From contig JAAZXA010000068.1 of assembly GCA_014240385.1 (NCBI GenBank), positions 29,090 to 93,089 on the forward strand: a stretch of DNA of 64,000 bases. Reading direction: 5' to 3'. Below the pieces are notes generated by a model. It saw nothing but the letters and a program-made list of their open reading frames with translations, did no database searches and had not been told where the DNA came from. Positions 7,247 to 58,385 of the stretch are shown one piece after another. This DNA is from Methanobacteriota archaeon. GTDB lineage: Archaea; Thermoplasmatota; Poseidoniia; Poseidoniales; Poseidoniaceae. The position numbers and the translations under genes are program-made. Position 1 is the first letter of the stretch, and each line of letters opens with the position of its first letter.

Positions 7247-8152
7247 TCAGTCTCGGTAATTCGGGAACTTGTAGTACATAAGCCACCATGTTCCTCTAAT
7301 CTCATCGCCACAATTACTGCAGCATTGAGCCTTGCCGATACTTTTCTTCGTTTGTGTTCCGTAACAGTAATCGATTGGTTCTCCTGCTTCGCTACGGAAT
7401 AGTTTCTCGATAACTGACTTTGGAATATCATTTTCAGCCCATTTGAACACAAGTGTTCCATTGGTTTTCAATAATCTCCATAGTTCTCGGAATCCCTTAG
7501 CGAGGTTTTCTTGCCAATCATGTCCTAGATACCCATACTTCATTGTGATGAATCCTGTGCCTTTCTTTTTCACATGGGGTGGATCCCATACGATGTGATT
7601 GAAGGTCTCGTCATCAAATTGAGGTAAGTAGGTGAAGTCCCCCAGAATATCTGGTTTGCATTCCCATCCGGGTTGGGATGGTATAGGCACACCGTCTGGG
7701 TCTTTTCGAGGCATCATTACTCCTTGAGAGCCTTCGCCTTTGACTTCTATCCTTTGATCTAGGAACAATACATTCGGATTGTTTTTGTGGTTTTTGTGCC
7801 AAATCGACCTTGAACCTGCTGTTGCATCGAGGATCAATAATTCATTGGCAGTTGGTATAATGGTTGAGTTGATGGTGATTCTCCACCATCCTCTGTCTAA
7901 ACCATCTTTTTCCACATCTCCTTTTCCTTTCAAGGAACCAAGTGCTGTTCTTACTCGGTGTTTCCATTCGGGTTGATTAGTTCCACATGTGCAGCATTGG
8001 CTGCAGAGATAATCGTCATCGCATAGGTGAGGGAAAGAATCCTTCACATATTCGTAAATGACGGTTATTTTGTGGATTCCCTCTGGAACCACTTTCGTTA
8101 TTCCACCGTCCATTAGTTCCTTTTGCAATTTTCTGTGTTGCAATTGTTGCAT
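7247..8152 (-). CDS. DNA methyltransferase (N6-A/N4-C type) with Cys-rich N-terminal domain
   Basis: track ORF 7247..8209 trimmed to PM-ATG at 8152; motif I ILDATAGSRS and motif IV VWDPPH. Confidence 0.7.
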   Translation of the reverse strand: MQQLQHRKLQKELMDGGITKVVPEGIHKITVIYEYVKDSFPHLCDDDYLCSQCCTCGTNQPEWKHRVRTALGSLKGKGDVEKDGLDRGWWRITINSTIIPTANELLILDATAGSRSIWHKNHKNNPNVLFLDQRIEVKGEGSQGVMMPRKDPDGVPIPSQPGWECKPDILGDFTYLPQFDDETFNHIVWDPPHVKKKGTGFITMKYGYLGHDWQENLAKGFRELWRLLKTNGTLVFKWAENDIPKSVIEKLFRSEAGEPIDYCYGTQTKKSIGKAQCCSNCGDEIRGTWWLMYYKFPNYRD

Positions 8153-10814: not shown

Positions 10815-11144
10815 TCATTCCGCATTCCAAAGATGGGGGTTTCCTGAACGAATTATCGTCAGTATTTCCCACCTTTGGAATGTTATGTCGTTAATTGTTA
10901 GTTGTTCGGGTATCTTCTTCATGTCTGGCCTGTATGTAGGAACAGTTCCATTTTCCAACCTTGTCCGAGTCATTAGATCTCCAAAGTGTTCTTCTGCGAA
11001 ATTCTTCCTAATCGCACCGTTCCTTGCGGAACGATAGTATAGGGTTTCGTCTGAATCTCGCATTTTTCCCATTAGAGTTGTCCAATATTCAGGATCGTTC
11101 CAGACTTCAATGTCCATTCCGAGTTCTCTGTTAATTAGAGTCAT
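10815..11144 (-). CDS. hypothetical protein (109 aa)
   Basis: track ORF; PM-ATG at 11144. Confidence 0.75.
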   Translation of the reverse strand: MTLINRELGMDIEVWNDPEYWTTLMGKMRDSDETLYYRSARNGAIRKNFAEEHFGDLMTRTRLENGTVPTYRPDMKKIPEQLTINDITFQRWEILTIIRSGNPHLWNAE

Positions 11145-11389
11145 GAGCGGTTAGGCCATTTACATCTCTTCCTTCTGTCCATGTTTCTCTGAACTCAAAC
11201 TCCTACCATCAGGTCGTCCGAACTGCGGATTTGCTCCTGTCTCGTTCAATGTAGGTTCTCAAGCAAAGGCCATTTTGGACTAGGTAATTATGTTCCATTG
11301 GCCGTCCCCCGGCTACTTGTTGACTTTGCGTTGGTGCCGTCCAAGGATAGGACACCTTTTGCTTATCGTCGTATTGAGCCGTGAGCGGT
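11145..11389 (-). ncRNA. non-coding island B
   Basis: opens with ACCGCTCACGG (11381-11389), conserved hairpin at 11333-11356, closes with PM-ATG at 11144; only shadow ORFs. Confidence 0.4.
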
Positions 11390-11405
11390 TGGCCGAAGTT
11401 GATAT

Positions 11406-11702
11406 TCAAGCCATAGGTGGCGAGACAATCTTGTTGCACTTCGCCGGTATCTTCGTGCAGCGCAAAAAGTCAACATTCTTCTCGGGCATCATAAAGGGGG
11501 CTGTCGTATATGTTGTGCGCTTGTATTCCTTCACGCCATCATGTCCGATGATTAATGCTCCCTCTTCGTTCTTATGCTTCTCAAACCATTCTTTGCATTT
11601 TGCTTCCAATGTCTTGATGTCTTCTTCCATTGCTTTCTTAGCTTCTTTCATTTTTGCCAAATGTACGAATTTATCTCGTATTCTTTTAGGTGCTTTTGCC
11701 AT
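11406..11702 (-). CDS. hypothetical Lys-rich protein (98 aa)
   Basis: track ORF 11406..11789 trimmed to variant PM ACCCCTC-ATG at 11702 (MAKAPKRIRDKF...). Confidence 0.65.
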   Translation of the reverse strand: MAKAPKRIRDKFVHLAKMKEAKKAMEEDIKTLEAKCKEWFEKHKNEEGALIIGHDGVKEYKRTTYTTAPFMMPEKNVDFLRCTKIPAKCNKIVSPPMA

Positions 11703-11780
11703 GAGGGGTGGGAGACAGGTGGATCCTATAGGGATGGGATGCCAACAGGAGGTTGTGAACACCTGTCCCCCGTGAGCGGT
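11703..11780 (-). promoter_or_regulatory. structured leader (long stem-loop between ACCGCTCAC and the start codon)
   Basis: GGGAGACAGGTG (11710-11721) pairs with CACCTGTCCCCC (11760-11771), one mismatch, 38-nt loop; the stem abuts the start codon. Confidence 0.5.
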
Positions 11781-11785
11781 TTCTA

Positions 11786-12142
11786 TCACAACTTCATCAA
11801 CTTTCCCCGAAGGGATTCGAATTTGATGATCCTTTTGATAGCGTTTTGAAATTCCTTGTTCAGTTTTTCATCATCTGATTCAGATAGATGGAATTCAGGG
11901 TTTTTCATATTCAGTAATTTGTATCTCATCACAGAATTGACGAGGAATTTCTGTTCTTCTTCACTCAATTCAGACCTTGGGCGGTTGATTTTGTAATTGT
12001 TAATCAGCCGTTCCAGAACAAACATTTGTTCTCTATGGTCGTATGAGCATGTTTCAAGCCATTGTTTTGCTTCGATTCGTAATTGCTTTCGAAGATCAAT
12101 AACCCTTTCAGTTTTTTTCCTCAAGTGGGTTAGGTTCGTCAT
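11786..12142 (-). CDS. hypothetical protein (118 aa)
   Basis: track ORF; variant PM ACCACTC-ATG at 12142. Confidence 0.7.
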   Translation of the reverse strand: MTNLTHLRKKTERVIDLRKQLRIEAKQWLETCSYDHREQMFVLERLINNYKINRPRSELSEEEQKFLVNSVMRYKLLNMKNPEFHLSESDDEKLNKEFQNAIKRIIKFESLRGKLMKL

Positions 12143-12419
12143 GAGTGGTTAAGTCCCATACGCACACTTGATATCCACCTGATAGGATTCCTCCTCTAAA
12201 GGCGGAACCAACCTTCTTGAAACGCTTGTCTTTGGACAAACAGTTGCCGAGTTGTTGGCTTGTCGTCCCGTGCCTCATGGTTTCATTGATGTAATCTTGA
12301 ATTGCATAAGTTGGCTGGGGGCCGTTATCTTCTAGGTACTGGACTATCTTGATTCGTATTCTTTGTGTCTTCATGGAAATCACCCTACGGGGGTTCCCTT
12401 GATGAAGTCTTTGCTTCAT
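12108..12419 (-). CDS. putative winged-helix protein (103 aa)
   Basis: track ORF 12108..12473 trimmed to PM-ATG at 12419; IVQYLEDNGPQPTYAIQDYINE-type helix pattern. Confidence 0.6.
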   Translation of the reverse strand: MKQRLHQGNPRRVISMKTQRIRIKIVQYLEDNGPQPTYAIQDYINETMRHGTTSQQLGNCLSKDKRFKKVGSAFRGGILSGGYQVCVWDLTTHDEPNPLEEKN

Positions 12420-12429
12420 GAGCGGTAAT

Positions 12430-15919: not shown

Positions 15920-17191
15920 TCATTCCAGTATTTTCTGCATCTCCTTTTCGAGCAAAGCATCATTTCTTCGTGCTATGTGCTCTTTCATGGAGTATCGCAG
16001 ACCGTCATACTTGAGGCTGTTCAGCGTAGCCTTGCCAAGATTGGCAACAGGCTTACGCTCATACCAGTCTTTTCGCTTCATCATCTCGCCTGTAACGGGA
16101 TGAGGAACGATTTCATTTCCTTCTGGGCTTTCAGCGAGTTTCAACCATTGGAAGGGCATCAATTTCCATGCGCCTATCTTCTCAGTATATGGCTTGAATT
16201 CTTTCTTGTAGCCCGAAAGTCCTGATTTCTTATCGGGTTCTGGTGTCATCTTGTAAACATGAGTACAGTTAGGATCTTCGCACCATCCACTAGCCATAGG
16301 AGTCCTATGGTAGCCTCGGTTGCATCTACCTCCCTTGTTGAGAGGCATTCCATCTCTGTGCCATTTCTCATGCTTGTCTTCTGAGTAGAAGCGTTCTTCG
16401 ATTCCTAGAGCTTCTTGCAGCCCTATACCATCAGCGTCAATCAAACGGTCAACTTCCCATTCTTTGCAGAATGGACACCACATGCATGAACTCTTCTGGA
16501 CTGGGGAGCCATCTCCCCTGTAATCCCATCCAAGTATCTGCAACATGGCGAGGCATTCTTTCCTATTCATGTCCAATTCCTGGAGAGGATAGGAGTATTC
16601 ATGCCCTTTGACTTTGTTTTGACCGTGGTTTGCTGTGAATCTGTCAGTTCTTCCACCTTCGTTGGCTTCGATGCCAAGCATCCACCATTTTTCCGATACA
16701 GTATGGTCTCCAAAGGTTTCTTCTGCCCATTTCTGTTGGACATTTCCCTTGAATCTCATGCTGCAGGTATGTTGTTGTCCTCCAATTACTGGAAGCATTC
16801 CTCCATCCATCAACCATTCATAGATCTTGTAGACCTTTTCTCCCTTGGTGTAATCATCCTTCTCTGATTTGGGCAAACTTCTCCATTCTTCATAGCGGAG
16901 TTCTTCGCCTGTATCATTGTGATGATAAACGGGGATTGTGTGTCTAACGGTAACTACTGGCAAGCCTACTTCTGCGCATCGCTTCTCTGCGTATGCAAGG
17001 TTTTCGTAGGTTTCAGGCCATTCGCTACCGGGATCCGAGAATACGGCTGCAACGAATGGAGGAAACTTTTCGTCTAGTTCTTGTCGAGTTATCCCCAACG
17101 CTTCGGCTGAGGTGTCTCTGTCTAAGTGCATGGCTAGAAGGGCTGTTGAATCAACCCCTACGCCAAATGATAACAAGTCTATTCGTTTCAT
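15920..17191 (-). CDS. PAPS reductase-like protein with degenerate PP-loop (423 aa)
   Basis: track ORF trimmed to PM-ATG at 17191; LLSFGVGVDSTALL in place of SGGKDS; SSCMWCPFC Cys cluster as in phage PAPS-reductase/DndC-like proteins. Confidence 0.55.
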   Translation of the reverse strand: MKRIDLLSFGVGVDSTALLAMHLDRDTSAEALGITRQELDEKFPPFVAAVFSDPGSEWPETYENLAYAEKRCAEVGLPVVTVRHTIPVYHHNDTGEELRYEEWRSLPKSEKDDYTKGEKVYKIYEWLMDGGMLPVIGGQQHTCSMRFKGNVQQKWAEETFGDHTVSEKWWMLGIEANEGGRTDRFTANHGQNKVKGHEYSYPLQELDMNRKECLAMLQILGWDYRGDGSPVQKSSCMWCPFCKEWEVDRLIDADGIGLQEALGIEERFYSEDKHEKWHRDGMPLNKGGRCNRGYHRTPMASGWCEDPNCTHVYKMTPEPDKKSGLSGYKKEFKPYTEKIGAWKLMPFQWLKLAESPEGNEIVPHPVTGEMMKRKDWYERKPVANLGKATLNSLKYDGLRYSMKEHIARRNDALLEKEMQKILE

Positions 17192-25823: not shown

Positions 25824-26096
25824 CTATGGCAATGGTGCAACCATTTGAGCCATAGGTGGGCTTGGCGGAACAATCTCAATTAATCCTTCAATGCCTGTTG
25901 CAAGGGCTAAGAGGACCTTTCGGTGGATGGTTAAGCGGTGGATTAATTCGTCCAATACATCTGCGCCTTCCAACTCTGCTATGTTTTCCGCCAGACCATT
26001 AGTTGGATTCCACCTGTCTTGGTGCTTTTCCATTAGGTCTGCTTCGTATTTCACTAGGTCAATTCCTAGTAATTCGTGTTGATATTCTTCTAACAT
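25824..26096 (-). CDS. hypothetical protein (90 aa)
   Basis: track ORF; PM-ATG at 26096. Confidence 0.7.
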   Translation of the reverse strand: MLEEYQHELLGIDLVKYEADLMEKHQDRWNPTNGLAENIAELEGADVLDELIHRLTIHRKVLLALATGIEGLIEIVPPSPPMAQMVAPLP

Positions 26097-26340
26097 GAGC
26101 GGTTCTTTTCATTCCAGCGGGGGATGTTTCGTCACCTTGAACTTGAGCCGACCCCCATCACTTGATTCTTGCCTACAAGCAGTGGGGAGGTATCTTTCAG
26201 TGGTGGGCGAGTATCGAGCCCCTTGTTTCAAAGAACCCGGTTATATCATTGGTTGTCTCCTTTCGAGTTTCTTCGGTGTCGTCCAAGGATTGGACACCTA
26301 CTTTCTCTACTTTGGACTGCAATAAGTCCCCGTGAGCGGT
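26097..26340 (-). ncRNA. non-coding island C
   Basis: opens with TGA-ATACCGCTCACGG (26332-26340), conserved hairpin at 26275-26298, closes with PM-ATG at 26096. Confidence 0.4.
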
Positions 26341-28806: not shown

Positions 28807-29073
28807 TCATTCTTCTTCAAGATCATCCCAGTGGATAAAATCTCTTTTCATTGTCCTTCTTTTGAATTTAGGGGTGTTTTCTACAAATGGGTCGGGTATT
28901 GTATTTGTCTCTTCTGGTTTGCCAAAAATATAGGCGAACCAGAAATACATCAATATCCCCATAAGAATTATCGTATAGGGGTCTTGCAGCCATTCGTAGA
29001 TGAGTGCGCATAGCAATCCTGTGCAAATTGCTGCTAGTGCGTTTCTTACATTCAATTCAATGTATTGTTCCAT
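28807..29073 (-). CDS. membrane protein (88 aa, 2 TM)
   Basis: track ORF; PM-ATG at 29073; AAICTGLLCALIY and IILMGILMYFWFAYIF. Confidence 0.7.
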   Translation of the reverse strand: MEQYIELNVRNALAAICTGLLCALIYEWLQDPYTIILMGILMYFWFAYIFGKPEETNTIPDPFVENTPKFKRRTMKRDFIHWDDLEEE

Positions 29074-29378
29074 GAGCGGTTTGTACCGGCATACTCTTGC
29101 TTAGACTGTTCGCTGGACAGTTGGCCTGTGAATCTAACTGCAACACTCCGTCTTCCCGTTTCTGTCTCCGTAGATACAATTGAGGGAAGCTGCGGGTTTG
29201 TCAATTGACTCGATGGCATCGTGGCCGAAGCCGCAGGATGCCCTAAGCAGTATCTTACCGTAGGTACTTACCCGACTCGCCAATTAGGGGTCACACCATC
29301 CATGACTGTTGGTGCCGTCCAAGGATTGGACACCGTAAGCGTATTGGTTCTGCCCCGGTTAGGTCTGTCGTGAGCGGT
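29074..29378 (-). ncRNA. non-coding island D
   Basis: opens with TAA-ACCGCTCACGA (29370-29378), conserved hairpin at 29311-29334, closes with PM-ATG at 29073. Confidence 0.4.
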
Positions 29379-32368: not shown

Positions 32369-32726
32369 GAGCGGTAAATAGGCATTACACCATTGCGCCA
32401 GCACAAGGCCTGCACTTATCCTAGACTTTCTGAGATGTTGAGGCCAAACCGACCAGTTCATCATCGAGGGCTTTCGGGGGGGCGTGTCGACTTCCTTGCT
32501 TGGAGCCACTTTACCCTAGCCCACCGATTTGGGAACGGTATGTCCTGTTCATGCCTTTAGCCGTCCAAATGGAACTAACTGCCGATCCGTAGATGGGTCT
32601 GGGCTTTGGCAATCCTTTGGATTCCGTCATTCCACTCAGCGTGGGTCTAGTGAGAGGTAAGTTGGGGGAAACCAAAAAGAAAACCCAACCGCCGTTGCAG
32701 TTGGGTTTGTTTGATTTGTGAGCGGC
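32369..32726 (-). ncRNA. non-coding island E (terminator plus about 300 nt of unassigned sequence)
   Basis: opens with GCCGCTCACAA (32718-32726), then a terminator-like hairpin; lacks the conserved 24-nt hairpin; closes with PM-ATG at 32368. Confidence 0.35.
32669..32716. terminator. hairpin with T-rich tails on both strands
   Basis: AACCCAAC (32682-32689) pairs with GTTGGGTT (32700-32707); minus-sense tail TTTTCTTTTTGG; shares a CCCAACCGC core with the 37463 hairpin. Confidence 0.55.
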
Positions 32727-32735
32727 TCTTATGCC

Positions 32736-35408: not shown

Positions 35409-35428
35409 ATTTGATGTGAGCGGTGTGT

Positions 35429-37429: not shown

Positions 37430-37447
37430 GAGGGGTGCAAAATGGGT

Positions 37448-37497
37448 AATTCAAAACAAAACGCCCAACCGCATTGTCGCGGTTGGGCTTTTTGAAT
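37448..37497. terminator. 10-bp GC-rich hairpin with T-rich tails on both strands
   Basis: GCCCAACCGC (37463-37472) pairs with GCGGTTGGGC (37479-37488); plus-sense tail TTTTTG, minus-sense tail GTTTTGTTTTG. Confidence 0.65.
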
Positions 37498-37695
37498 ATG
37501 ACTTTGCGTGGGGGGTGCTCGAGATTTTTACTAGCCGCCTGCCTGCTGTATGGCTCTCGAGGGTCCGTGAGGACACGGCTCCTAACACAACTGATTTCCT
37601 TCTTCAAGATCCAGTTGGCCTCATCCCTGAATTAGGGATTACATTCCTCATTACCTATTGAAGCCGTTTCCGGCCTCTGCTGTAATTTTTTCGTA

Positions 37696-37782
37696 CATGT
37701 GGGGTTATCGTTATGTCCATCTCGATTCATGGCTCCATTGCCGACCTCTAATAGGCGGAGCGGGATTTTTTTCGGTGTGTTG
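37696..37782 (-). repeat. 87-nt promoter/leader-like repeat, copy A
   Basis: near-identical to 40303-40390 (2 substitutions plus a 1-nt indel); ends in ACCCCACATG; contains an A7 run and CCTATTAGAGG. Confidence 0.85.
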
Positions 37783-37788
37783 AAAGGT

Positions 37789-38067: not shown

Positions 38068-38082
38068 GAGCGGTTTGCTTTG

Positions 38083-38128
38083 GAACGGGAGCCCCGCTCA
38101 ATATCCGCAGATATTGGGCGGGGCGTTC
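38083..38128. promoter_or_regulatory. 14-bp-arm inverted repeat inside an operon
   Basis: CCCCGCTCAATATC (38092-38105) / GATATTGGGCGGGG (38110-38123), one mismatch, flanked by GAACG/CGTTC. Confidence 0.6.
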
Positions 38129-38144
38129 TAGATTTTGAACTCGT

Positions 38145-41034: not shown

Positions 41035-41168
41035 TGGTGGACCGTGCTGGATTCGAACCAGCGGCCTCCTAAGACAGACAACTTCGACTCCTTCCGTCCT
41101 GCCCGGGACAGTTCGGTTTTTGTCTTATTCTGTTTCTTAGGCGCTCTTCCTGACTGAGCTAACGGCCC
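41035..41168 (-). tRNA. tRNA-like gene with a 57-nt insertion in the anticodon loop and encoded CCA; identity unresolved
   Basis: reverse complement folds as GGGCCGT/TA/GCTC-AGTCAGGAA-GAGC/G/CCTAA-[64 nt]-TTAGG/AGGCC/GCTGG-TTCGAAT-CCAGC/ACGGTCC/A/CCA. Confidence 0.75.
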
Positions 41169-43694: not shown

Positions 43695-44135
43695 TGTGAT
43701 TTCCCTTTTGGTTTTCTTGGAATCTTTTCTGTATTGCAACAGAACATAATGGATGTCTCTGCGATTGTAGCTTCCGTTTTCATCTGGTTCTGCGGACCAA
43801 CAGGCATACCTTAGTGAGCGGTTTTCTTCCTGCATTAGTTCCAACATGGTTTCAGGGCCAACGCTGTACACTTCCTTGACTTCTCTGAGAGATAATTGCT
43901 CATCTGGAACTAATCGCCAAAGTGTTCGTCTGTATTCTCCTGTTCCATCCTTTGTTCTTTCAACACCTGCTGGATCAAACCTTTCTGGGTATGATGAAAG
44001 GATCCCAGCAATTACTGATTTCCGTTCTTTACCCATTTTGTCTAGTATTCGGTCAAAAGGGAGAATTTCATCTTTGGACTCATGGAAGATTTTCTCAATC
44101 TTTGGGACAAGGCGGTTTTTTGCCTTCCTTGCCAT
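43680..44135 (-). CDS. putative winged-helix protein (151 aa)
   Basis: track ORF; GAGG-type SD upstream of ATG 44135; contains an internal sense-strand AAACCGCTCAC at 43814-43822. Confidence 0.6.
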   Translation of the reverse strand: MARKAKNRLVPKIEKIFHESKDEILPFDRILDKMGKERKSVIAGILSSYPERFDPAGVERTKDGTGEYRRTLWRLVPDEQLSLREVKEVYSVGPETMLELMQEENRSLRYACWSAEPDENGSYNRRDIHYVLLQYRKDSKKTKREITLPLV

Positions 44136-44428: not shown

Positions 44429-44635
44429 ATGAAAGCAGAAGATCCTCTAGTGCAAACCTTACTCAAGACCCTGATGGAGTTAGAAAAGGTGGATGAAAAA
44501 GACTTGAGACACATGATTGAAGTTGCTGGACAACTATGTACCCAACTCGAGCGGCCGGAGAGTATTGCGGCCTTGATGTTTCAGGTGATGGATGTTTCCA
44601 AAGCGGTTGATTCCTCGATTACTGGTTATGCCTGA
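44429..44635 (+). CDS. hypothetical protein (68 aa)
   Basis: track ORF; TTTATGCACC box begins 31 nt upstream of the ATG (leaderless-type spacing). Confidence 0.6.
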   Translation: MKAEDPLVQTLLKTLMELEKVDEKDLRHMIEVAGQLCTQLERPESIAALMFQVMDVSKAVDSSITGYA

Positions 44636-44639
44636 ATCC

Positions 44640-44654
44640 TTCATACGACTGAAC
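44640..44654 (+). promoter_or_regulatory. promoter-like box P1 TTCATACGACTGAAC
   Basis: ATACGACTGAAC begins exactly 27 nt before ATG 44670. Confidence 0.6.
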
Positions 44655-44669
44655 ACCTTCGGCTCTCAC

Positions 44670-47111
44670 ATGAGAGTAGGTTTTCTCCTGTTAGGCAACG
44701 CCCCGTTTTACTTGACTGGGTATGGTACGCAATTGAAAATTCTAGGCGACAAATTAATTGAAGAGGGTTACCCTGTAGGTCATGTTGTTGACTTTGGATA
44801 TGCTGGACAACATATGGAATGGGAAGGGCGAACTGTTTACCCCCATGATAAGTTGCCAGGAACTCTGACTGCTGATACAATGAAATCGCACATCCTGTCT
44901 TTTCAACATAAACACGGTTTAGATCAAGTCGTTGTTTGGTCTTTGGGTGATACATGGAAATTGAGTAAGTTGAATCAAGCCATCAAGCACCCGTATTGGA
45001 TTTGCATGACTCCTGTTGATTCGGATAGGATGGATGGCGGTTCAATTACCGCTCACAATAATTCATGGTTGCAAGCCGCAATATCGAAACATGGTGTTGA
45101 AATTATGAGGGCTGCTGGATTAACTGGCATCAATTACCTCCCCCACATGGTCGGAGATTCCTTTGTGCCAATAAATCAAGAGTATGCTAGAGCCGCATGT
45201 GGTTTGCCTCAAGATCCCTTTGTCGTTGGTTTCTTTGGAGACATGAGTATGCGTAAATGCCCTCATGAGAATCTAGAGGCTTTTGCAATTTTCAAGCAGT
45301 CCGTACCGAACTCCCTCCTCTTCATCAAGACTAGTAACCATGTCCAACAGGTTCAATTCCATGAATTAATTCATAGGCTGGGTTTGCAGAATTCGGTTAT
45401 CACAATTCCCCCCTATGATTCCCTTCTAGGGCTAACGGATTATGAGATGGCACGAGCCCTCTCCAGTTTGGATGTGCTTCTTCATGTGAGTTCCCAAGAG
45501 GGTTTTGGAATCATACAAGTTGAAGCCCAAATGTGCGGAGTACCTGTTATCAACATGGATTTTGGTTCCCAAAGAGAGCTTCAAGGAAATCCCGAACTGT
45601 TGGTTCCTGTGGAACAGATGAATCGTGTTGATGGTGGAATGAAGGTTCCATTTGCGGCACCTGAGAAGATAGCGGAGAAGTTGATGTCTGTTTACAACCA
45701 TCTCAATAAAGTCAGCAGTCTTTCCGATGGTTTTATCGTCAAAAGGGCAATCGAACATGCAGAAACATACAGGGTTGATAAGGTGTGGGACGAGTATTAC
45801 AAGCCATTCCTCAAAGGGATGATTGGATCTATTGATGCGGTTTCTAGAGTTGTTATTCCCCCCCGTTCATTGAAGAAGGTGGGCATTGTTTCTACATTCG
45901 ATACTGAATGTGGAATTGCTACTTACACCCACATGCTTGCTACAAAATTGGTAGAGCAGGGAATGGAAGTTGTTGTCTTTTCGGAAACAGACGGTGAGTT
46001 TGAAGAAGTTCTTGAACATGAAGGTATTCGGCACCATCGATGTTGGAATCGAATGAATCCAAACACCAAATTATTCCGTGAACTTGTTGAGAGGGAGGGT
46101 TGCGATATTATCCACTTCCAGCACGAATGGCAGTTGTTCAAGAGTACGGGGTTGATTGAGGAACTTCGAGATGTACAAGTTAAGAAAGCCATCACATATC
46201 ATACCCCTCAGCCCGACCAAATGCGTAAATTGCTAAGGATTACTGATTCAACCGTTGATGCCCACATAACGCACTGGCCGGAGACTACCCAGTTGTTGCC
46301 AATGGTTTGTGAACATGGGATGTTGAATGGTGTCCAAACCATCAAACATGGTGTCCTTGAGCATTCACTTGTCCAGGACAAGTCTGTTCTGGGCATTCCT
46401 GAAAAGGTTCCAGTATTCTTCACCTTTGGTTTTGCTTCTTCAAGCAAGGGGTTGGATTATTTCATTGATGCGGCCATCCAAGCTTCTAAGAATCCAAATT
46501 GCCGGTACTTCGAAGTTGTAATTGCAATGTCCTATCATCCCGATTGGGATATGAGCGACTTGGCGAAGGAGATTAGAGCGAAGGCTGGTTCTGTTGATTT
46601 CATTACGCTTATTGAAGGATGGATGGATGATGATTCACTTGATGTTCATGCGGCTGCTAGTGACTACCTTGTTTTCCCCTACCGTTGGTACCAACAGATC
46701 CATAGTGCGTCTGGCGCAGTTAGACGCGTTTTGGGTCATGGTAAGCCCGTCTTGGTTACAGATGAGGGAAGGCTTCGAGATTTGACTGGAGGCGTACACG
46801 GTTGGAAGTTCGGCCAATACGATGTAGATGGCTTCGCTGCTGCTATTGTTGATGCGTCTTCATTACTTGGCAGTCCTCGGTATCAAAAGATGGCCCAAGC
46901 GGTCAAGGATTACTCTTCTTTGACCTCGTGGGATAATATTGCTGCGCAACACATTCAACTTTACGATAAGGTCTGTGGCTTGTGGTCGGTGGTTCCAGAG
47001 GGTATGTCACGAGCCCAAAGAGTTGAGATTGATTTACCATTCCCAGAATTACTTGATTCGGATGTTCAAGTGGATCGTTGGCATTTGCATAGGGGTGACG
47101 AAGAAGAATGA
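44670..47111 (+). CDS. large two-domain glycosyltransferase (GT-B, GT4-like; 813 aa)
   Basis: track ORF 44592..47111 trimmed to MRVGFLLLG; VSSQEGFGIIQVEAQMCGVPVI E-x7-E region; second Rossmann-like half begins KVGIVSTFDTECGIATY. Confidence 0.8.
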   Translation: MRVGFLLLGNAPFYLTGYGTQLKILGDKLIEEGYPVGHVVDFGYAGQHMEWEGRTVYPHDKLPGTLTADTMKSHILSFQHKHGLDQVVVWSLGDTWKLSKLNQAIKHPYWICMTPVDSDRMDGGSITAHNNSWLQAAISKHGVEIMRAAGLTGINYLPHMVGDSFVPINQEYARAACGLPQDPFVVGFFGDMSMRKCPHENLEAFAIFKQSVPNSLLFIKTSNHVQQVQFHELIHRLGLQNSVITIPPYDSLLGLTDYEMARALSSLDVLLHVSSQEGFGIIQVEAQMCGVPVINMDFGSQRELQGNPELLVPVEQMNRVDGGMKVPFAAPEKIAEKLMSVYNHLNKVSSLSDGFIVKRAIEHAETYRVDKVWDEYYKPFLKGMIGSIDAVSRVVIPPRSLKKVGIVSTFDTECGIATYTHMLATKLVEQGMEVVVFSETDGEFEEVLEHEGIRHHRCWNRMNPNTKLFRELVEREGCDIIHFQHEWQLFKSTGLIEELRDVQVKKAITYHTPQPDQMRKLLRITDSTVDAHITHWPETTQLLPMVCEHGMLNGVQTIKHGVLEHSLVQDKSVLGIPEKVPVFFTFGFASSSKGLDYFIDAAIQASKNPNCRYFEVVIAMSYHPDWDMSDLAKEIRAKAGSVDFITLIEGWMDDDSLDVHAAASDYLVFPYRWYQQIHSASGAVRRVLGHGKPVLVTDEGRLRDLTGGVHGWKFGQYDVDGFAAAIVDASSLLGSPRYQKMAQAVKDYSSLTSWDNIAAQHIQLYDKVCGLWSVVPEGMSRAQRVEIDLPFPELLDSDVQVDRWHLHRGDEEE

Positions 47112-47335
47112 CTGAATGGAAGAAGGAAGATGTTGGCAAGGAAACTCCCGTTTTTATCGAGGGAGTGAAGGTGATTGATATGATTGTTGAAGTAATGTTG
47201 CCAGATGGGCAGGTTATTATTGGGCCTCAATTGGCGTGTGCTCATATTTTTGCTCGTTATTCAATGGTTCCTGCAATGGAGATGGTTAGCGAAGCTACAC
47301 AGAAAACAATTGAAAGCATGGAGGGGGATGCATGA
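47108..47335 (+). CDS. hypothetical protein (75 aa)
   Basis: track ORF; ATGA overlap with the glycosyltransferase stop. Confidence 0.65.
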   Translation: MTEWKKEDVGKETPVFIEGVKVIDMIVEVMLPDGQVIIGPQLACAHIFARYSMVPAMEMVSEATQKTIESMEGDA

Positions 47336-47418
47336 CGCCAGGAGTGGTATACAAGTGTGTGAAATGTGGTGTTTGGAGTATGGGTACTCACAAATGCGTT
47401 CAAGAGGAGGAAGAGTAG
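47332..47418 (+). CDS. zinc-ribbon micro-protein (28 aa)
   Basis: MTPGVVYKCVKCGVWSMGTHKCVQEEEE; GGAGGGGGA SD; ATGA overlap upstream, stop abuts ATG 47419. Confidence 0.45.
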   Translation: MTPGVVYKCVKCGVWSMGTHKCVQEEEE

Positions 47419-48177
47419 ATGTTATCCGTAATCTGTTGTACTGCCCGTCAAGAGGCAGGTATCAAAGAGATGTTGAAGAGTTTGGAAAAGCAGACGCATA
47501 CTGATTTCGAGTTTGTTTTGGTTGATAAGGCATGGGAATCTCGCAACGGGGCTTTCATCCTGATGCTGGATAATTCGTCGGTTAATTGCAAATACATCAA
47601 AGACGAATCCAAACATGGATTTGTTTCGATTGCCTCTGCTCGGAACCTAGCAGTTGAGTCCTCCGATGGAGATTGGATCGTTTCAGTTGATGATAGGACG
47701 CTGTTCTACCCCGATACCTTGGAACTACATGCGCAAGCATTTGAGGAAGGTTGGGATGGTATGGCGGGTTTTTCTGATTTCCACCACGAAGGCGTTTTTG
47801 CTGAGAAAGAACCAGACAAAGAGGATGAGAGGGGAGATAACCCCCAGTCAGGACATGGGAAATATGCATCAAGTAATTTCTTTGGCTATCACATGGGGTT
47901 CTCGAAGAAGGCTTGGGCTAAGGTCCGGGGTTTCGATGAGAACTATGATGGTGTTTACGGGTGGGAAGATTGTGATTTTGGTTTGAGGCTCGGTAATGCG
48001 GGAGCGGTTGTGAAATTGGGAACCCAATGTCGTGTGCTGCAGATTCGAGACGCTGCACATGGCGAGGTTTTCCAGAAGGATGATGCGCCACATGCAATTA
48101 CTGGAGGTCACATCAGATGGCGTAATGACCGAATGTATAGGCTCACATTAATGAACAGGGGCAGGTGCAGGTGGTAA
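47419..48177 (+). CDS. family-2-like glycosyltransferase (252 aa)
   Basis: track ORF; LSVICCTARQEAGIKEMLKSLEKQTHTDFEFVLVD N-terminal GT-A pattern, VSVDD acidic motif; GAGGAGGAAG SD. Confidence 0.7.
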   Translation: MLSVICCTARQEAGIKEMLKSLEKQTHTDFEFVLVDKAWESRNGAFILMLDNSSVNCKYIKDESKHGFVSIASARNLAVESSDGDWIVSVDDRTLFYPDTLELHAQAFEEGWDGMAGFSDFHHEGVFAEKEPDKEDERGDNPQSGHGKYASSNFFGYHMGFSKKAWAKVRGFDENYDGVYGWEDCDFGLRLGNAGAVVKLGTQCRVLQIRDAAHGEVFQKDDAPHAITGGHIRWRNDRMYRLTLMNRGRCRW

Positions 48178-50446: not shown

Positions 50447-51211
50447 ATGACGCTAAGCGGATTCATTGCAATGCCTCGAAAACCGGGGAAAACAAAGATT
50501 GGGCAGATCCTCAAGAATATTGGATTCAAGGATAAGGGAGCAGCAGGAAATATGTGGGTCTTTGGTAAGACTCGGTTCCGTGTAGATGTGGTTGATTTTA
50601 GGGATGATTTGAGAGATCATGACGCTGAATGGGTTGAAGAAGTTGGATGGGATGATAATTGGGCCGTCCGTATTGCTGTCAATCATTCTAACAGAACAGA
50701 TGAAAATTACATCTTGTGGCATTCGATTCTAGTCATAGCCGCTGAGTGCTTAGGCGTTAGAGAAATTTGGTTAGATGGCGGCACAGGCATTCCACAGCAA
50801 CCGTACACACTTCGAGAGTTGTTTCCTGAATTGAAATCTGATGAAGGAGAAGACTTGATTGAAGAATCCGAAGCCGCCCCTGTTCTAGTCGACAAGGCAG
50901 AAGTCTTGGAGCTTCCAGATATTGAAACACCTGCTGAGCCTGTTTTGGTTCCATCTGAGCCTGAGCCTGAGCCTGAGCCTGAACCTGTGCCTGAGCCTCA
51001 AACAGAATCGTCCGAAGAGGATTACGATTCCTGGGGATGGGATGAGGATGAGGATGAGGATGAGGATGAGGATGAGGATGAGGACGATTCATGGAATGAG
51101 GATGAGGATGAGGATGAGGATGAGGATGAGGACGAGGATGAATCCGAAGAAGAGAATGAATCCGAAGAGAATGAATCCGAAGAAGGTGTTGATGTAATCA
51201 CTGAATGGTGA
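50447..51211 (+). CDS. protein with (EP)n and (DE)n low-complexity C-terminal half (254 aa)
   Basis: track ORF 50396..51211 trimmed to the ATG set by box P4. Confidence 0.7.
   Translation: MTLSGFIAMPRKPGKTKIGQILKNIGFKDKGAAGNMWVFGKTRFRVDVVDFRDDLRDHDAEWVEEVGWDDNWAVRIAVNHSNRTDENYILWHSILVIAAECLGVREIWLDGGTGIPQQPYTLRELFPELKSDEGEDLIEESEAAPVLVDKAEVLELPDIETPAEPVLVPSEPEPEPEPEPVPEPQTESSEEDYDSWGWDEDEDEDEDEDEDEDDSWNEDEDEDEDEDEDEDESEEENESEENESEEGVDVITEW
50957..50998 (+). repeat. hexanucleotide tandem repeat (GAGCCT)x7, imperfect
   Basis: read directly; encodes EPEPEPEPEPVPEP. Confidence 0.9.
51041..51142 (+). repeat. two runs of (GATGAG)n hexanucleotide repeat
   Basis: 51041-51085 and 51096-51142; encode DEDEDE... 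tracts. Confidence 0.9.
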
Positions 51212-51948
51212 GTTCTTTGGTTGAAGGGGGTGCAATGGCGTGGGGAGGCCTCCTTTACCTCAAGCACCTTTGGGATTCTTGGAAAAGTCACCGAATAGGA
51301 ATATATGGCCTGTGGGCGTGTGGTAAGACCACCCTGAATCGTTATTTGAATACCTCTGGGGATCTCGAAGAAGATACTGCCCGTATGACTAGCACCGCTC
51401 ACCCCTATGATAAGAAGAAGAAGCAGTATGTTCCACCAAATGCAACCCGCAAGAGAATTCATGTTTTGTCCGAAGCAAATCAGTCATTCCGTAGAACCAT
51501 TCTCTCGTCTGATATTGGAGGCCAGTCCGAATATTTCAATCTCTGGGTTCGAGATTTGGTGTTGCGTGATGTTGAAGTAATCATCTATCTGGTTGATTCA
51601 AGGGATGATCCAGATGGGCTTCAAGAGGCAACATTTCGAGACTTTACGAGAATTATTGCCGAGAGAGATTTCCGTTTTACTGAACGAAAATTGAGGAAAA
51701 AGGCCAGAAATTATCAGCCGAAGGTGGTAGCCCTTGTTGCCAATAAATCGGACCTTTGGCTCAATCCAGACGAACGGGCGTATTACGAGGGGTCTGGCAT
51801 TGGCAGGCATCCAATTTTTGATGCTTACAGGCCGCACTTGGTACGGCTACAGAGAGCCGGTATTCCTACTTTGAAGCGAAGTATTTCAGCCCTCCATGGG
51901 TATGATGTGGAGCGATTAATATGGGATTGCTTGAAGGCGAAGTCGTGA
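51205..51948 (+). CDS. Arf/Arl/Sar-like small GTPase (247 aa; alternative start ATG 51235)
   Basis: G1 GLWACGKTT, G3 DIGGQSEYFNLW...IIYLVDSRD, G4 ANKSD, G5 SAL; hydrophobic N-terminal helix MAWGGLLYLKHLWDSW, as in Arf. Confidence 0.75.
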   Translation: MVSSLVEGGAMAWGGLLYLKHLWDSWKSHRIGIYGLWACGKTTLNRYLNTSGDLEEDTARMTSTAHPYDKKKKQYVPPNATRKRIHVLSEANQSFRRTILSSDIGGQSEYFNLWVRDLVLRDVEVIIYLVDSRDDPDGLQEATFRDFTRIIAERDFRFTERKLRKKARNYQPKVVALVANKSDLWLNPDERAYYEGSGIGRHPIFDAYRPHLVRLQRAGIPTLKRSISALHGYDVERLIWDCLKAKS

Positions 51949-57563: not shown

Positions 57564-58385
57564 CTACTCTTCCTCAGTCGCTTGATTGTTTTGGAAAGGA
57601 ATGGTTATTTCAGGTTCGGCCACAAGGGTTGGATGTATGCCTTCTACTACCTCTCCATCAACATCCATCATGCCATAGATGTACAAATTCTTTTTCTCGA
57701 GAATGTTCTTGATTGTCTGTCTGTGCCAGACCACCTTTCCCTTCCTTGTTTTGATGGCTTTTGTTGCTAGTTCATTGATTATGTCGGATATTGTGTAGCC
57801 TTGAGTTTCCATATTGAAGATTATGTTTACTACGCTTGCTTCTTCTTCGTTTGGTACAAGCAAACCTTTCTTGGATCTCTTTCCTGTATCATCGATTTCA
57901 ATATTCATGTCATACCCATAGGGGGGTGTTCCAAGCCAAATTCCTTTCAACTTTGCACCTGCCATGCCCATTTTGACTCTTTCTTTGATTTCATTTCGCC
58001 TTAGTTCAGCCAATGCTGCGAATACTATGTAGAAGAAGCGGCCTTGAACCGTTGTAGTGTCCATTTGTTCAGAGATACATGCAATATGGCAGTTGTTTGT
58101 ATCAATTGTGTTTACAAATTCAATTGCGTTCATGGTGTTGCGATGAAACCGGTCTAGTTTGTAACCAACTACTGCGTCCCATTCTTCGCCCATGGTTTCC
58201 ATCATCGCACCATATCCAGGCCTGTTGTCTGTGAATCCACCTGATCCTGTATCTGAGTAGCTTCGAATGTAAGTCCAACCTTGCATTTCGATGTAGTTCT
58301 GGCAAAGCCTCAACTGTTCCTCTAGGCTGTGGCCTTTTGCTTCTTGCTTCTCGGTTGAAACTCTTGTGTAGATTATTGCTCGCAT
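57564..58385 (-). CDS. serine recombinase (resolvase/invertase catalytic domain plus C-terminal extension)
   Basis: MRAIIYTRVSTEKQ...GHSLEEQ...YSDTGSGG...RPGY; canonical N-terminal Ser-recombinase motifs. Confidence 0.85.
   Translation of the reverse strand: MRAIIYTRVSTEKQEAKGHSLEEQLRLCQNYIEMQGWTYIRSYSDTGSGGFTDNRPGYGAMMETMGEEWDAVVGYKLDRFHRNTMNAIEFVNTIDTNNCHIACISEQMDTTTVQGRFFYIVFAALAELRRNEIKERVKMGMAGAKLKGIWLGTPPYGYDMNIEIDDTGKRSKKGLLVPNEEEASVVNIIFNMETQGYTISDIINELATKAIKTRKGKVVWHRQTIKNILEKKNLYIYGMMDVDGEVVEGIHPTLVAEPEITIPFQNNQATEEE

Follow-up and report, generated by a model that had tools for sequence, protein, structure and literature searches.

Intercistronic hairpins concerned with the processing or stability of messages are known from the RNase III sites of the T7 early region and from the repetitive extragenic palindromic (REP)-type stabilisers. 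Mitochondrial transcripts are punctuated by tRNAs and tRNA-like processing signals, and ribosome shunt structures are exemplified by the cauliflower mosaic virus (CaMV) 35S leader. Cluster K mycobacteriophages carry, just 5′ of many gene starts, a short conserved start-associated sequence (SAS) that contains the ribosome-binding site, 3–8 bp from the start (PMC3203893). In a subset, the extended start-associated sequences (ESAS), an imperfect inverted repeat lies immediately upstream; these repeats are multi-copy, share a 17-bp consensus and have a spacer of 4–13 bp. The function of SAS and ESAS is unknown, although a role in translation initiation is suspected (PMC3203893). They are the nearest documented counterpart, by analogy, of the element described here, a hairpin of about 62 nt on the minus strand of a 64,000-nucleotide stretch (hereafter the window) of contig JAAZXA010000068.1, which is part of an uncultured marine virus.

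The hairpin lies between a gene for a 118-aa protein and a gene for a Lys-rich 98-aa protein, in a block of small genes whose ATG codons are directly preceded by the motif ACCGCTC. It is conserved, belongs to the sense strand, occurs once per genome and is linked to the upstream gene. Our preferred reading, which we hold tentatively, is that it is a cis-acting intercistronic junction element in the polycistronic transcript of this block.

A structured exception among closely packed genes

Over about 39 kb from position 1 of the window, every gene lies on the minus strand and the genes are packed end to end. Between positions 1 and 39100, 87 minus-strand genes begin with (A)CCGCTCATG, the A at −7 being present in 94% of them. 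ACCGCTC directly abuts the ATG at about 87 genes, giving the canonical motif and start ACCGCTCATG. The upstream stop codon usually lies 0–8 nt ahead of the 10-nt motif, and at nearly every junction other than the one studied here only 7–15 nt separate a stop codon from the next AUG. These genes lack a Shine-Dalgarno sequence, and no conserved signal, TATA-like sequences included, was found 5′ of position −12 at the 87 motif sites. The junction downstream of the 118-aa gene departs from this rule. The gap between its stop codon and the next start motif is 76 nt, against 0–8 nt at most of the ~88 junctions, and for that reason we regard it as a deliberate exception. Its features, in the direction of transcription, are:

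11786..12142, minus strand: gene for the 118-aa protein, with the variant start ACCACTCATG; its homologs always lie 5′ of the hairpin
11772..11780, minus strand: null start ACCGCTCAC (as RNA, ACCGCUCAC), the gene-start motif with the T of ATG changed to C
11760..11771, minus strand: 5′ arm of the outer stem, GGGGGACAGGTG (as RNA, GGGGGACAGGUG), from the inverted repeat and the fold
11722..11759, minus strand: 38-nt interior with a variable 5′ half, an inner helix and a near-invariant core, from the minimum free energy (MFE) and centroid structures
11750-11745 with 11729-11724, minus strand: inner helix, UCCUGU paired with AUAGGA in the MFE and centroid structures
11743-11723, minus strand: near-invariant interior core, GGCAUCCCAUCCCUAUAGGAU
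11710..11721, minus strand: 3′ arm of the outer stem, CACCTGTCTCCC (as RNA, CACCUGUCUCCC), from the inverted repeat, the fold and the alignment
11700..11709, minus strand: variant start motif, ACCCCTC (11709-11703) followed by ATG (11702-11700)
11406..11702, minus strand: gene for the Lys-rich 98-aa protein, found behind the hairpin in the window genome only

A first-pass annotation, made from the letters of the window, had described this order of elements, and the minus strand indeed reads TAGAA, ACCGCTCAC, 5′ arm, 38 nt, 3′ arm, ACCCCTC and ATG after the stop of 11786..12142. The null start begins 5 nt past the TGA stop of the 118-aa gene and is invariant in all relatives. As had also been described, the 3′ arm ends 7 nt before the AUG at 11702, and the 98-aa gene is followed by island B, a 238-nt non-coding island opened by another ACCGCTCAC 16 nt further on.

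In a repeat search the two arms are 12 nt long, 92% complementary (11/12) and 38 nt apart. The stem, previously given as 8+3 bp, proves to pair at all 12 positions (3 G-C, one G.U and 8 others): as RNA it forms 12 contiguous pairs, 11 Watson-Crick and one G.U. It begins 1 nt past the null motif and ends exactly at the next motif, which leaves the start motif unpaired. A prediction of the RNA fold, the check that the first-pass annotation had proposed, gave for the 81-nt unit from ACCGCUCAC to the AUG a free energy of −28.4 kcal/mol (z = −3.3), with none of 200 dinucleotide shuffles as stable; its MFE structure is identical to the centroid. A 111-nt piece that includes the flanks does not fold significantly (z = −0.89). 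The repeat alone is weak evidence, since the window is rich in inverted repeats of this class (22, where Markov simulations give 5.5 ± 2.4, a four-fold enrichment). It is the conservation in relatives that makes the hairpin more than a chance structure.

The same annotation held this to be the only place where the motif and the start codon are separated by a dedicated structure. That stands for a short leader from ACCGCTCAC to a start codon, of which a covariance model finds no second copy in the window, and does not extend to stable hairpins in other short intergenic gaps. Two of these lie on the minus strand at 38075-38144 (z = −6.4) and 1105-1231 (z = −3.2), each 5′ of a canonical ACCGCTCATG and neither with a null-start motif.

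Conservation in marine relatives

The element was found on 24 further marine metagenome contigs, giving 25 instances with the window, one per contig. They come from independent marine samples (Tara Oceans, Mediterranean and other) and represent 8 distinct sequences in about four lineages. The covariance model was built from seven distinct sequences, over which the pairing counts below were made. All share the layout ACCGCTCAC - GGGGGGCAGG(C/T)G - ~39 nt - C(G/A)CCTGTCTCCC - ACC(C/T)CTC - ATG. In the window itself the next best match to the model scores 14.8 bits, against 97.5 for the element. The model found no element in L123, nor in the fetched part of L044, a more distant relative that uses the same motif. 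Pattern scans of IMG/VR returned no copy, and the single match in a set of one genome per prokaryotic species (185,579 genomes) was due to chance.

Conservation of the stem in relatives, on which the first-pass annotation had staked its reading, holds. All 12 outer pairs are standard in 7 of the 7 distinct sequences. At position 11 of the stem, the window, L001, L134 and L136 have U-A, and L125, L127 and L132 have C-G; at position 6 the window lineage has A-U and the others have G.U. No variant loses the inner helix, in which one pair changes from G.U to A-U. Over 133 pair cells, 99% are standard, compared with 48–62% when the 3′ partners are slid by 1–3 columns. The general mark of a conserved structured RNA, pairs kept through substitutions, is thus found here in about four lineages. 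The outer stem is 12 bp long in the window and 13 bp in relatives.

Several features assign the structure to the sense transcript. One of the G.U pairs is present without change in every sequence, and such pairs form in the sense RNA only. Four variants fold into one architecture on the sense strand (z = −2.4 to −3.4), whereas antisense folds are inconsistent (z = −0.5 to −2.0).

The two halves of the interior behave differently. The 5′ half drifts by substitutions and indels, while the 3′ half, GGCAUCCCAUCCC(A/U)AUAGGAU, is essentially invariant: the core is identical across lineages except for one A/T position and a C-to-A change in the strain contig L001. The start motif after the hairpin is always ACCYCTCATG, ACCCCTCATG or ACCTCTCATG in all relatives and never with G. 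Stop and ATG are 83, 84, 86 or 88 nt apart, and across the variants the two genes stand in frame relations of 2, 0, 1, 1, 2 and 2. Because length and frame relation vary between lineages, the leader is non-coding; no variant contains an AUG within it.

Linkage to the upstream genes

The first-pass annotation had suggested that the hairpin is a control element dedicated to the Lys-rich 98-aa protein. A real, conserved, sense-strand structure is what we find, but its dedication to that protein is not supported by the relatives. In those that carry the hairpin, the downstream gene encodes a different protein of 92–93 aa. This protein gives no BLASTP alignment with the 98-aa protein and an hhalign E value of 0.15, and homology between the two was rejected. 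Conversely, in L123 the ortholog of the 98-aa protein follows directly on the stop of another gene (a homolog of window 10815-11144) and begins at a canonical gaataACCGCTCATGG. Neither a hairpin on its 5′ side nor an island B on its 3′ side is present; a canonical motif and then the next gene come directly after it. This ortholog, P0001, with 86% identity, is the only divergent homolog of the 98-aa protein among 5.8 billion clustered proteins.

Homology between the window and the relatives covers a block of 1 kb with three genes (84 aa, DUF3860-like and 118 aa) and the hairpin, and it ends exactly at the downstream ATG. Homologs of the 118-aa protein, with 69–72% identity, occur on many marine contigs and are all followed by the hairpin. 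Since the homology block stops at the ATG, the downstream genes are unrelated and the L123 ortholog of the 98-aa gene is hairpin-less, the element is best read, from these sequence comparisons, as belonging to the upstream three-gene module or to the junction, whichever downstream gene inherits it. L123 also encodes a more distant homolog of the 118-aa protein (28% identity, E = 4e-12), followed directly by a canonical motif and no hairpin, and we conclude from this that the element is a lineage-specific acquisition bound to the upstream module. Comparison with L123 confines to CTCATGGC the crossover by which the 98-aa gene came to lie behind the hairpin, from which it follows that the pyrimidine (Y) of the variant motif belongs to the hairpin module.

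Conservation at the nucleotide level reaches beyond the hairpin itself. Flanking genes of the relatives are only about 70% identical. Identity is 87–96% over the last 45 nt of the 118-aa open reading frame (ORF), ACCGCTCAC and the 5′ arm, with a peak of 96% over 11832-11788, and again 87–96% over the conserved half of the loop, the 3′ arm and ACCYCTC; the rest of the block has 45–80%. In the last 16 codons of the 118-aa ORF, synonymous differences are reduced to 1/14, against ~28/61 elsewhere (Fisher p = 0.005–0.012). At 11794..11829 on the minus strand, inside the end of this ORF, lies a candidate upstream hairpin, UCAUCAA ... CCCUUCGGGG ... UUGAUGA. It appears in the RNAalifold consensus and in a 156-nt fold (11695-11850), and on its own reaches −11.1 kcal/mol (z = −0.96, not significant). 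We keep it as a weakly supported possibility because synonymous sites are suppressed there.

Searched against Pfam, PHROGs and NCBIfam, the 118-aa protein itself gave no match. Over 1.84 billion representatives, a full HMMER scan returned the protein and two weak repeat-protein matches only, and its AlphaFold model is poor (pLDDT, the predicted local confidence score, 53).

The L123 ortholog, in which the N-terminus MAKAPKRIRDKF comes after a canonical motif, confirms 11702 as the start of the 98-aa gene. An N-terminal extension from the GTG at 11789 was rejected, as the L123 ortholog starts MAKAPK right after the canonical motif and leader lengths are not multiples of three.

States of the gene-start motif and mosaic genomes

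The null start before the hairpin is one of nine CCGCTCAC sites on the minus strand of the window, at 43822, 41270, 35424, 32726, 29378, 26340, 11780, 11389 and 2011. Eight are ACCGCTCAC and one is GCCGCTCAC. In 9 of 9 a C replaces the T of ATG while the next base varies, which suggests that the signal is ACCGCTCAY and independent of the start codon. Most null starts open non-coding stretches; that at 35424 is followed by an ORF starting at a non-motif ATG.

Changes in the core of the motif are rare, with only three variants among about 90 motif sites in the window. One is the ACCCCTC-ATG after the hairpin, and another is ACCACTCATG at the start of the 118-aa gene, conserved in relatives and in L123. 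The third stands after a 350-nt non-coding stretch with a terminator-like hairpin:

37427, minus strand: core variant ACCCCTCATG

Four non-coding islands of 240–310 nt lie on the minus strand at 29070-29378, 26093-26340, 11141-11389 and 1770-2011, and similar islands are found in relatives (L134 ~7276-7510, L140 ~27-280). The four share only a hairpin, GGTGTCCWATCCTTGGACGRCACC, about 40 nt past ACCGCTCAC, and are otherwise divergent; none matches Rfam, and they probably constitute a family of non-coding RNAs of the virus. A relationship between their hairpin and the one studied here was rejected, there being no alignable similarity. Two longer non-coding stretches of ~350 nt on the minus strand (37430-37788 and ~32376-32735) carry similar terminator-like hairpins with T-runs, CCCAACCGCgacaatGCGGTTGGG-cgTTTTGTTTT and CCCAACtgcaacggcgGTTGGG-TTTTCTTTTT, the T-run sites being 37461-37500 and ~32650-32700. 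They are likely boundaries of transcription units.

Short AUG-less leaders also occur at another gene of the block. In relatives, the DUF3860-like gene starts at a motif-less ATG, behind ACCGCTCAC and a 46-nt leader that contains no AUG (L134 2254-2305, L125 2219-2270 and equivalents in L133 and L139-L141). At 12360-12426 of the window the motif ATG is intact and in frame, and it adds a 15-codon N-terminal extension to the DUF3860-like gene. An ATG/ACG switch therefore toggles the segment between leader and coding extension.

The genomes are highly mosaic. Between the window and L123, L125, L127, L132-L134, L136 and L139-L141, cassettes are reordered, and homology blocks begin and end at the ACCGCTCATG motif. 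As far as can be judged from these alignments, this suggests that the motif is also a recombination junction.

Possible roles of the hairpin

In the cis-acting junction element that we tentatively prefer, the two-tier hairpin would stand between a null start, ACCGCUCAC, on its 5′ side and a weakened ACCYCUC-AUG on its 3′ side, and would break an otherwise uniform stop-to-start relay of 7–15 nt. It might serve as a processing or 3′-stabilising hairpin for the upstream message, or, with its 3′ arm abutting the weakened start motif, limit the access of ribosomes to that motif, or do both together. Expression of the next gene would then be set independently of the upstream module, either lowered or uncoupled. 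That the element acts in cis on the fate or translation of the mRNA, and in which direction, we infer.

A number of points weigh against this reading. The element is absent from L123 and from IMGVR_UViG_3300020446_000001, the 127.5-kb IMG/VR contig behind L044, both of which use the same motif, and such absence from distant relatives means that the gene-start system itself can do without it. Mechanisms framed in terms of ACCGCTCATG are, moreover, provisional. As for covariation, 10 of 500 shuffles reached the observed score, and with about four lineages and one compensatory pair we take the sequence evidence on this point as supportive, not conclusive. Finally, the near-invariant loop exceeds what a stability hairpin needs and points to sequence-specific recognition, which would fit a trans-acting RNA or a protein-binding site as well as, or better than, a stability hairpin.

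The loop leads to the main rival, a serious one although we think it less likely: that the hairpin is a separate small non-coding RNA in a ‘gene slot’ of its own. Every expression unit would then have its 5′ boundary at ACCGCUCA, set either by transcription starting there or by cleavage ahead of the A, and a hairpin RNA of ~70–74 nt (5′-AC, stem-loop, ACCYCUC-3′) would be released to act in trans or to bind a protein through its loop. The behaviour of the null starts agrees with this. The nine CCGCTCAC sites open stretches that have no start codon at the motif and are mostly non-coding, the uniform C and variable next base make ACCGCTCAY look start-independent, and four islands of 230–310 nt in such slots, with their shared hairpin, resemble RNA genes. 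The fit of the stem between the two motifs, 1 nt past the first and exactly up to the second, and the near-invariance of the core GGCAUCCCAUCCCWAUAGGAU while the other half of the loop drifts, are equally in its favour. An autonomous cassette, however, predicts neither the conservation nor the synonymous suppression that reach into the 118-aa ORF, and in the genomes sampled the element never moves apart from the 118-aa gene, though other cassettes shuffle. No evident target emerged either: the window holds 5 loop-complementary 15-mers (up to 3 mismatches; one is the locus itself) against 1.5 expected, a count reached by 4 of 100 shuffles, and there is no match to an Rfam family.

A wider proposal, less likely still, extends this to the whole virus as a system of RNA punctuation, in which ACCGCUCA|Y would set the 5′ end of every expression unit and the hairpin would be the smallest non-coding cassette. 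If this were true, the window would give rise to ~87 leaderless, AUG-first mRNAs in a virus that has Shine-Dalgarno-like sites on other genes, together with non-coding RNAs beginning ‘AC...’. The ~70-nt hairpin would be either a discrete small RNA of the virus or a decoy for the motif-reading factor, whose action would be tuned by the conserved G-to-Y change in the motif that follows.

More doubtful again is the reading of the first-pass annotation, a dedicated 5′ leader controlling the translation or processing of the downstream gene. On this view ACCGCUCAC would be the beginning of the unit and the hairpin would serve either as a 5′-terminal stabiliser or as a translational gate; the leader would remain attached because the G-to-Y change had disabled the second motif. 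The 3′ arm does abut the start motif, 7 nt from the AUG; the variant is conserved as ‘not G’ in all lineages; and no variant has an AUG within the leader. Leadered units also exist in the group, as shown by the relatives’ DUF3860 gene behind ACCGCTCAC, a 46-nt AUG-less leader and an ATG. The supposed client nevertheless differs between lineages, and the 98-aa ortholog is leaderless in L123. The start motif is left unpaired by the stem, so that it is not simply occluded, and the conserved block extends upstream into the preceding ORF.

We find it highly improbable that the inverted repeat works at the DNA level, as a binding or recombination site or as the scar of a small mobile insertion. A candidate partner would be the serine recombinase at 57564-58385, and the scar would consist of 12-bp terminal inverted repeats with a duplicated ACC(G/C)CTCA target. 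Compared with L123 there are exactly 71 extra bases between ACCGCTCA and TG, bounded by the inverted repeat and flanked by ACCGCTCA and ACCCCTCA; the gene cassettes of the group recombine at the motif; and the window contains the recombinase gene. That gene is, however, 46 kb away, and each genome has a single syntenic copy, with none elsewhere in the window and none in IMG/VR. The two G.U positions and the nested helix fit RNA, with a significant fold in the sense strand and not in the antisense. Viewed as a miniature inverted-repeat transposable element (MITE), the locus does have terminal inverted repeats (12-nt arms, 11/12 complementary). The apparent target-site duplication, ACCGCTCA and ACCCCTCA on either side, may simply be the motif that is found before every gene, about 90 of them in all. 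The absence of dispersed copies in the window, the relatives, IMG/VR and the 185,579 species genomes led us to reject a MITE or other mobile insertion.

That the repeat is a functionless chance product of a decayed spacer is scarcely credible: the 22 inverted repeats of this size in the window and the non-significant 111-nt fold would suit it, but arms, inner helix and core are conserved where the neighbouring genes are ~70% identical, and a compensatory pair is present.

The hairpin is a new RNA family of narrow distribution, found in marine viral contigs from Tara Oceans and Mediterranean samples. Taken alone, it is unremarkable in kind and adds one to the conserved intercistronic RNA hairpins already known; what gives it value is the ACCGCTC-ATG punctuation system that it interrupts. 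Within about 440 bases the motif occurs in three states, ACCACTCATG, ACCGCTCAC and ACCYCTCATG, all conserved across lineages, and this makes the junction a natural place to learn whether the motif acts in transcription start, RNA cleavage or ribosome recruitment. For working out ACCGCTCATG punctuation in this group of viruses, it is the most informative junction. The comparison also shows that the gene cassettes of the group recombine exactly at the motif.

Setting in the viral genome

Assemblies in ENA labelled BUSC20-1 and HARO18-2 hold identical or near-identical pieces of the window. No DNA-level similarity to any GenBank phage was found for the window, and two of its large proteins gave no close protein match. 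In the literature library searched, no paper refers to the motif in connection with viruses. The genes at 42–64 kb do without the motif and have GGAGG or GGTGA-like sequences 5–10 nt before their starts. Other recognisable genes include:

57564-58385, minus strand: serine recombinase with Resolvase and Recombinase domains
51205-51948, plus strand: Arf-family small GTPase-like protein
44592-48177, plus strand: two glycosyltransferases (GT4, GT2)
15920-17191, minus strand: PAPS-reductase-like protein

The PAPS-reductase-like protein has ~60–70% identity with its counterpart on the 127.5-kb IMG/VR contig that uses the same motif. Three observations hint at an archaeal host: a tRNA-Gln(CTG) with a 57-nt intron and encoded CCA at 41035-41168 on the minus strand, a weak TFIIB-like match below the Pfam cutoff and the Arf-family GTPase match just above it. 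The tRNA was missed by ARAGORN at standard settings and found by Rfam and by ARAGORN with its intron option.

Known RNA classes and related systems

Applied to the whole window at gathering thresholds, Rfam 15 returned three tRNAs only. A permissive scan of 11100-11850 (E ≤ 10) gave spurious matches only, with E ≥ 0.13 and scores far below gathering; a known Rfam family was therefore rejected at either threshold. An intrinsic terminator was rejected because the 3′ arm is followed by ACCCCUCAUGGCAAAAG with no U-run and a consensus scan finds no terminator-like site. A promoter was rejected for want of a consensus match and of anything TATA-like beyond −12 at the 87 motif sites. In the loop, the window sequence ACCUCCU could mimic an anti-Shine-Dalgarno, a candidate that we discarded since this sequence is not conserved in relatives.

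A slippery heptamer, G_GGA_AAG (as in lambda G-T), lies at 11800-11806 on the minus strand in the zero frame of the 118-aa ORF, and in the window the −1 frame fuses this ORF to the whole 98-aa ORF (a mechanical 127-aa ORF, 11406..11789). A −1 frameshift or readthrough signal was nevertheless rejected: the hairpin comes 29 nt after the heptamer, where 5–9 nt would be expected, and the −1 frame of the relatives stops after 14–36 codons, leaving the fusion frame in the window only.

Among the systems introduced above, the likeness to ESAS lies in a 3′ arm that abuts a start-associated motif, here ACCCCTC-ATG. Unlike the ESAS repeats, the hairpin is single-copy, has a unique sequence and a 38-nt structured interior, and is bracketed by a null and a weakened motif. 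Unlike SAS, the motif abuts the ATG with no spacer and has no Shine-Dalgarno.

Like ribosome shunt structures, the hairpin is placed between an ORF that ends 14 nt before its base and an AUG 7 nt past its 3′ base. The virus is of prokaryote type, and we know of no ribosome shunting in such systems; the likeness is purely one of analogy. As in the tRNA punctuation of mitochondrial transcripts, a structured RNA between coding units could define the mRNA ends on either side. The comparison goes no further in structure: neither ARAGORN nor the Rfam tRNA model detected a tRNA at the site, the 12-bp acceptor/T-arm length is not kept and there is no T-loop. A tRNA-like 12-bp minihelix was rejected for the same reasons, relatives having 13 bp, a large internal loop and no T-loop.

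In function the element most resembles, by analogy, the intercistronic processing and stability hairpins of phage early operons. It differs from the T7 and REP-type hairpins in being known from sequence alone, in a host that may be archaeal, to our knowledge a domain in which most members lack RNase III, and in having no Rfam or sequence similarity to them. In common with them it is an irregular hairpin of ~60 nt with an internal loop, placed between cistrons and inherited with the upstream message, a likeness that makes it a plausible determinant of segmental mRNA stability or of the uncoupling of cistrons.

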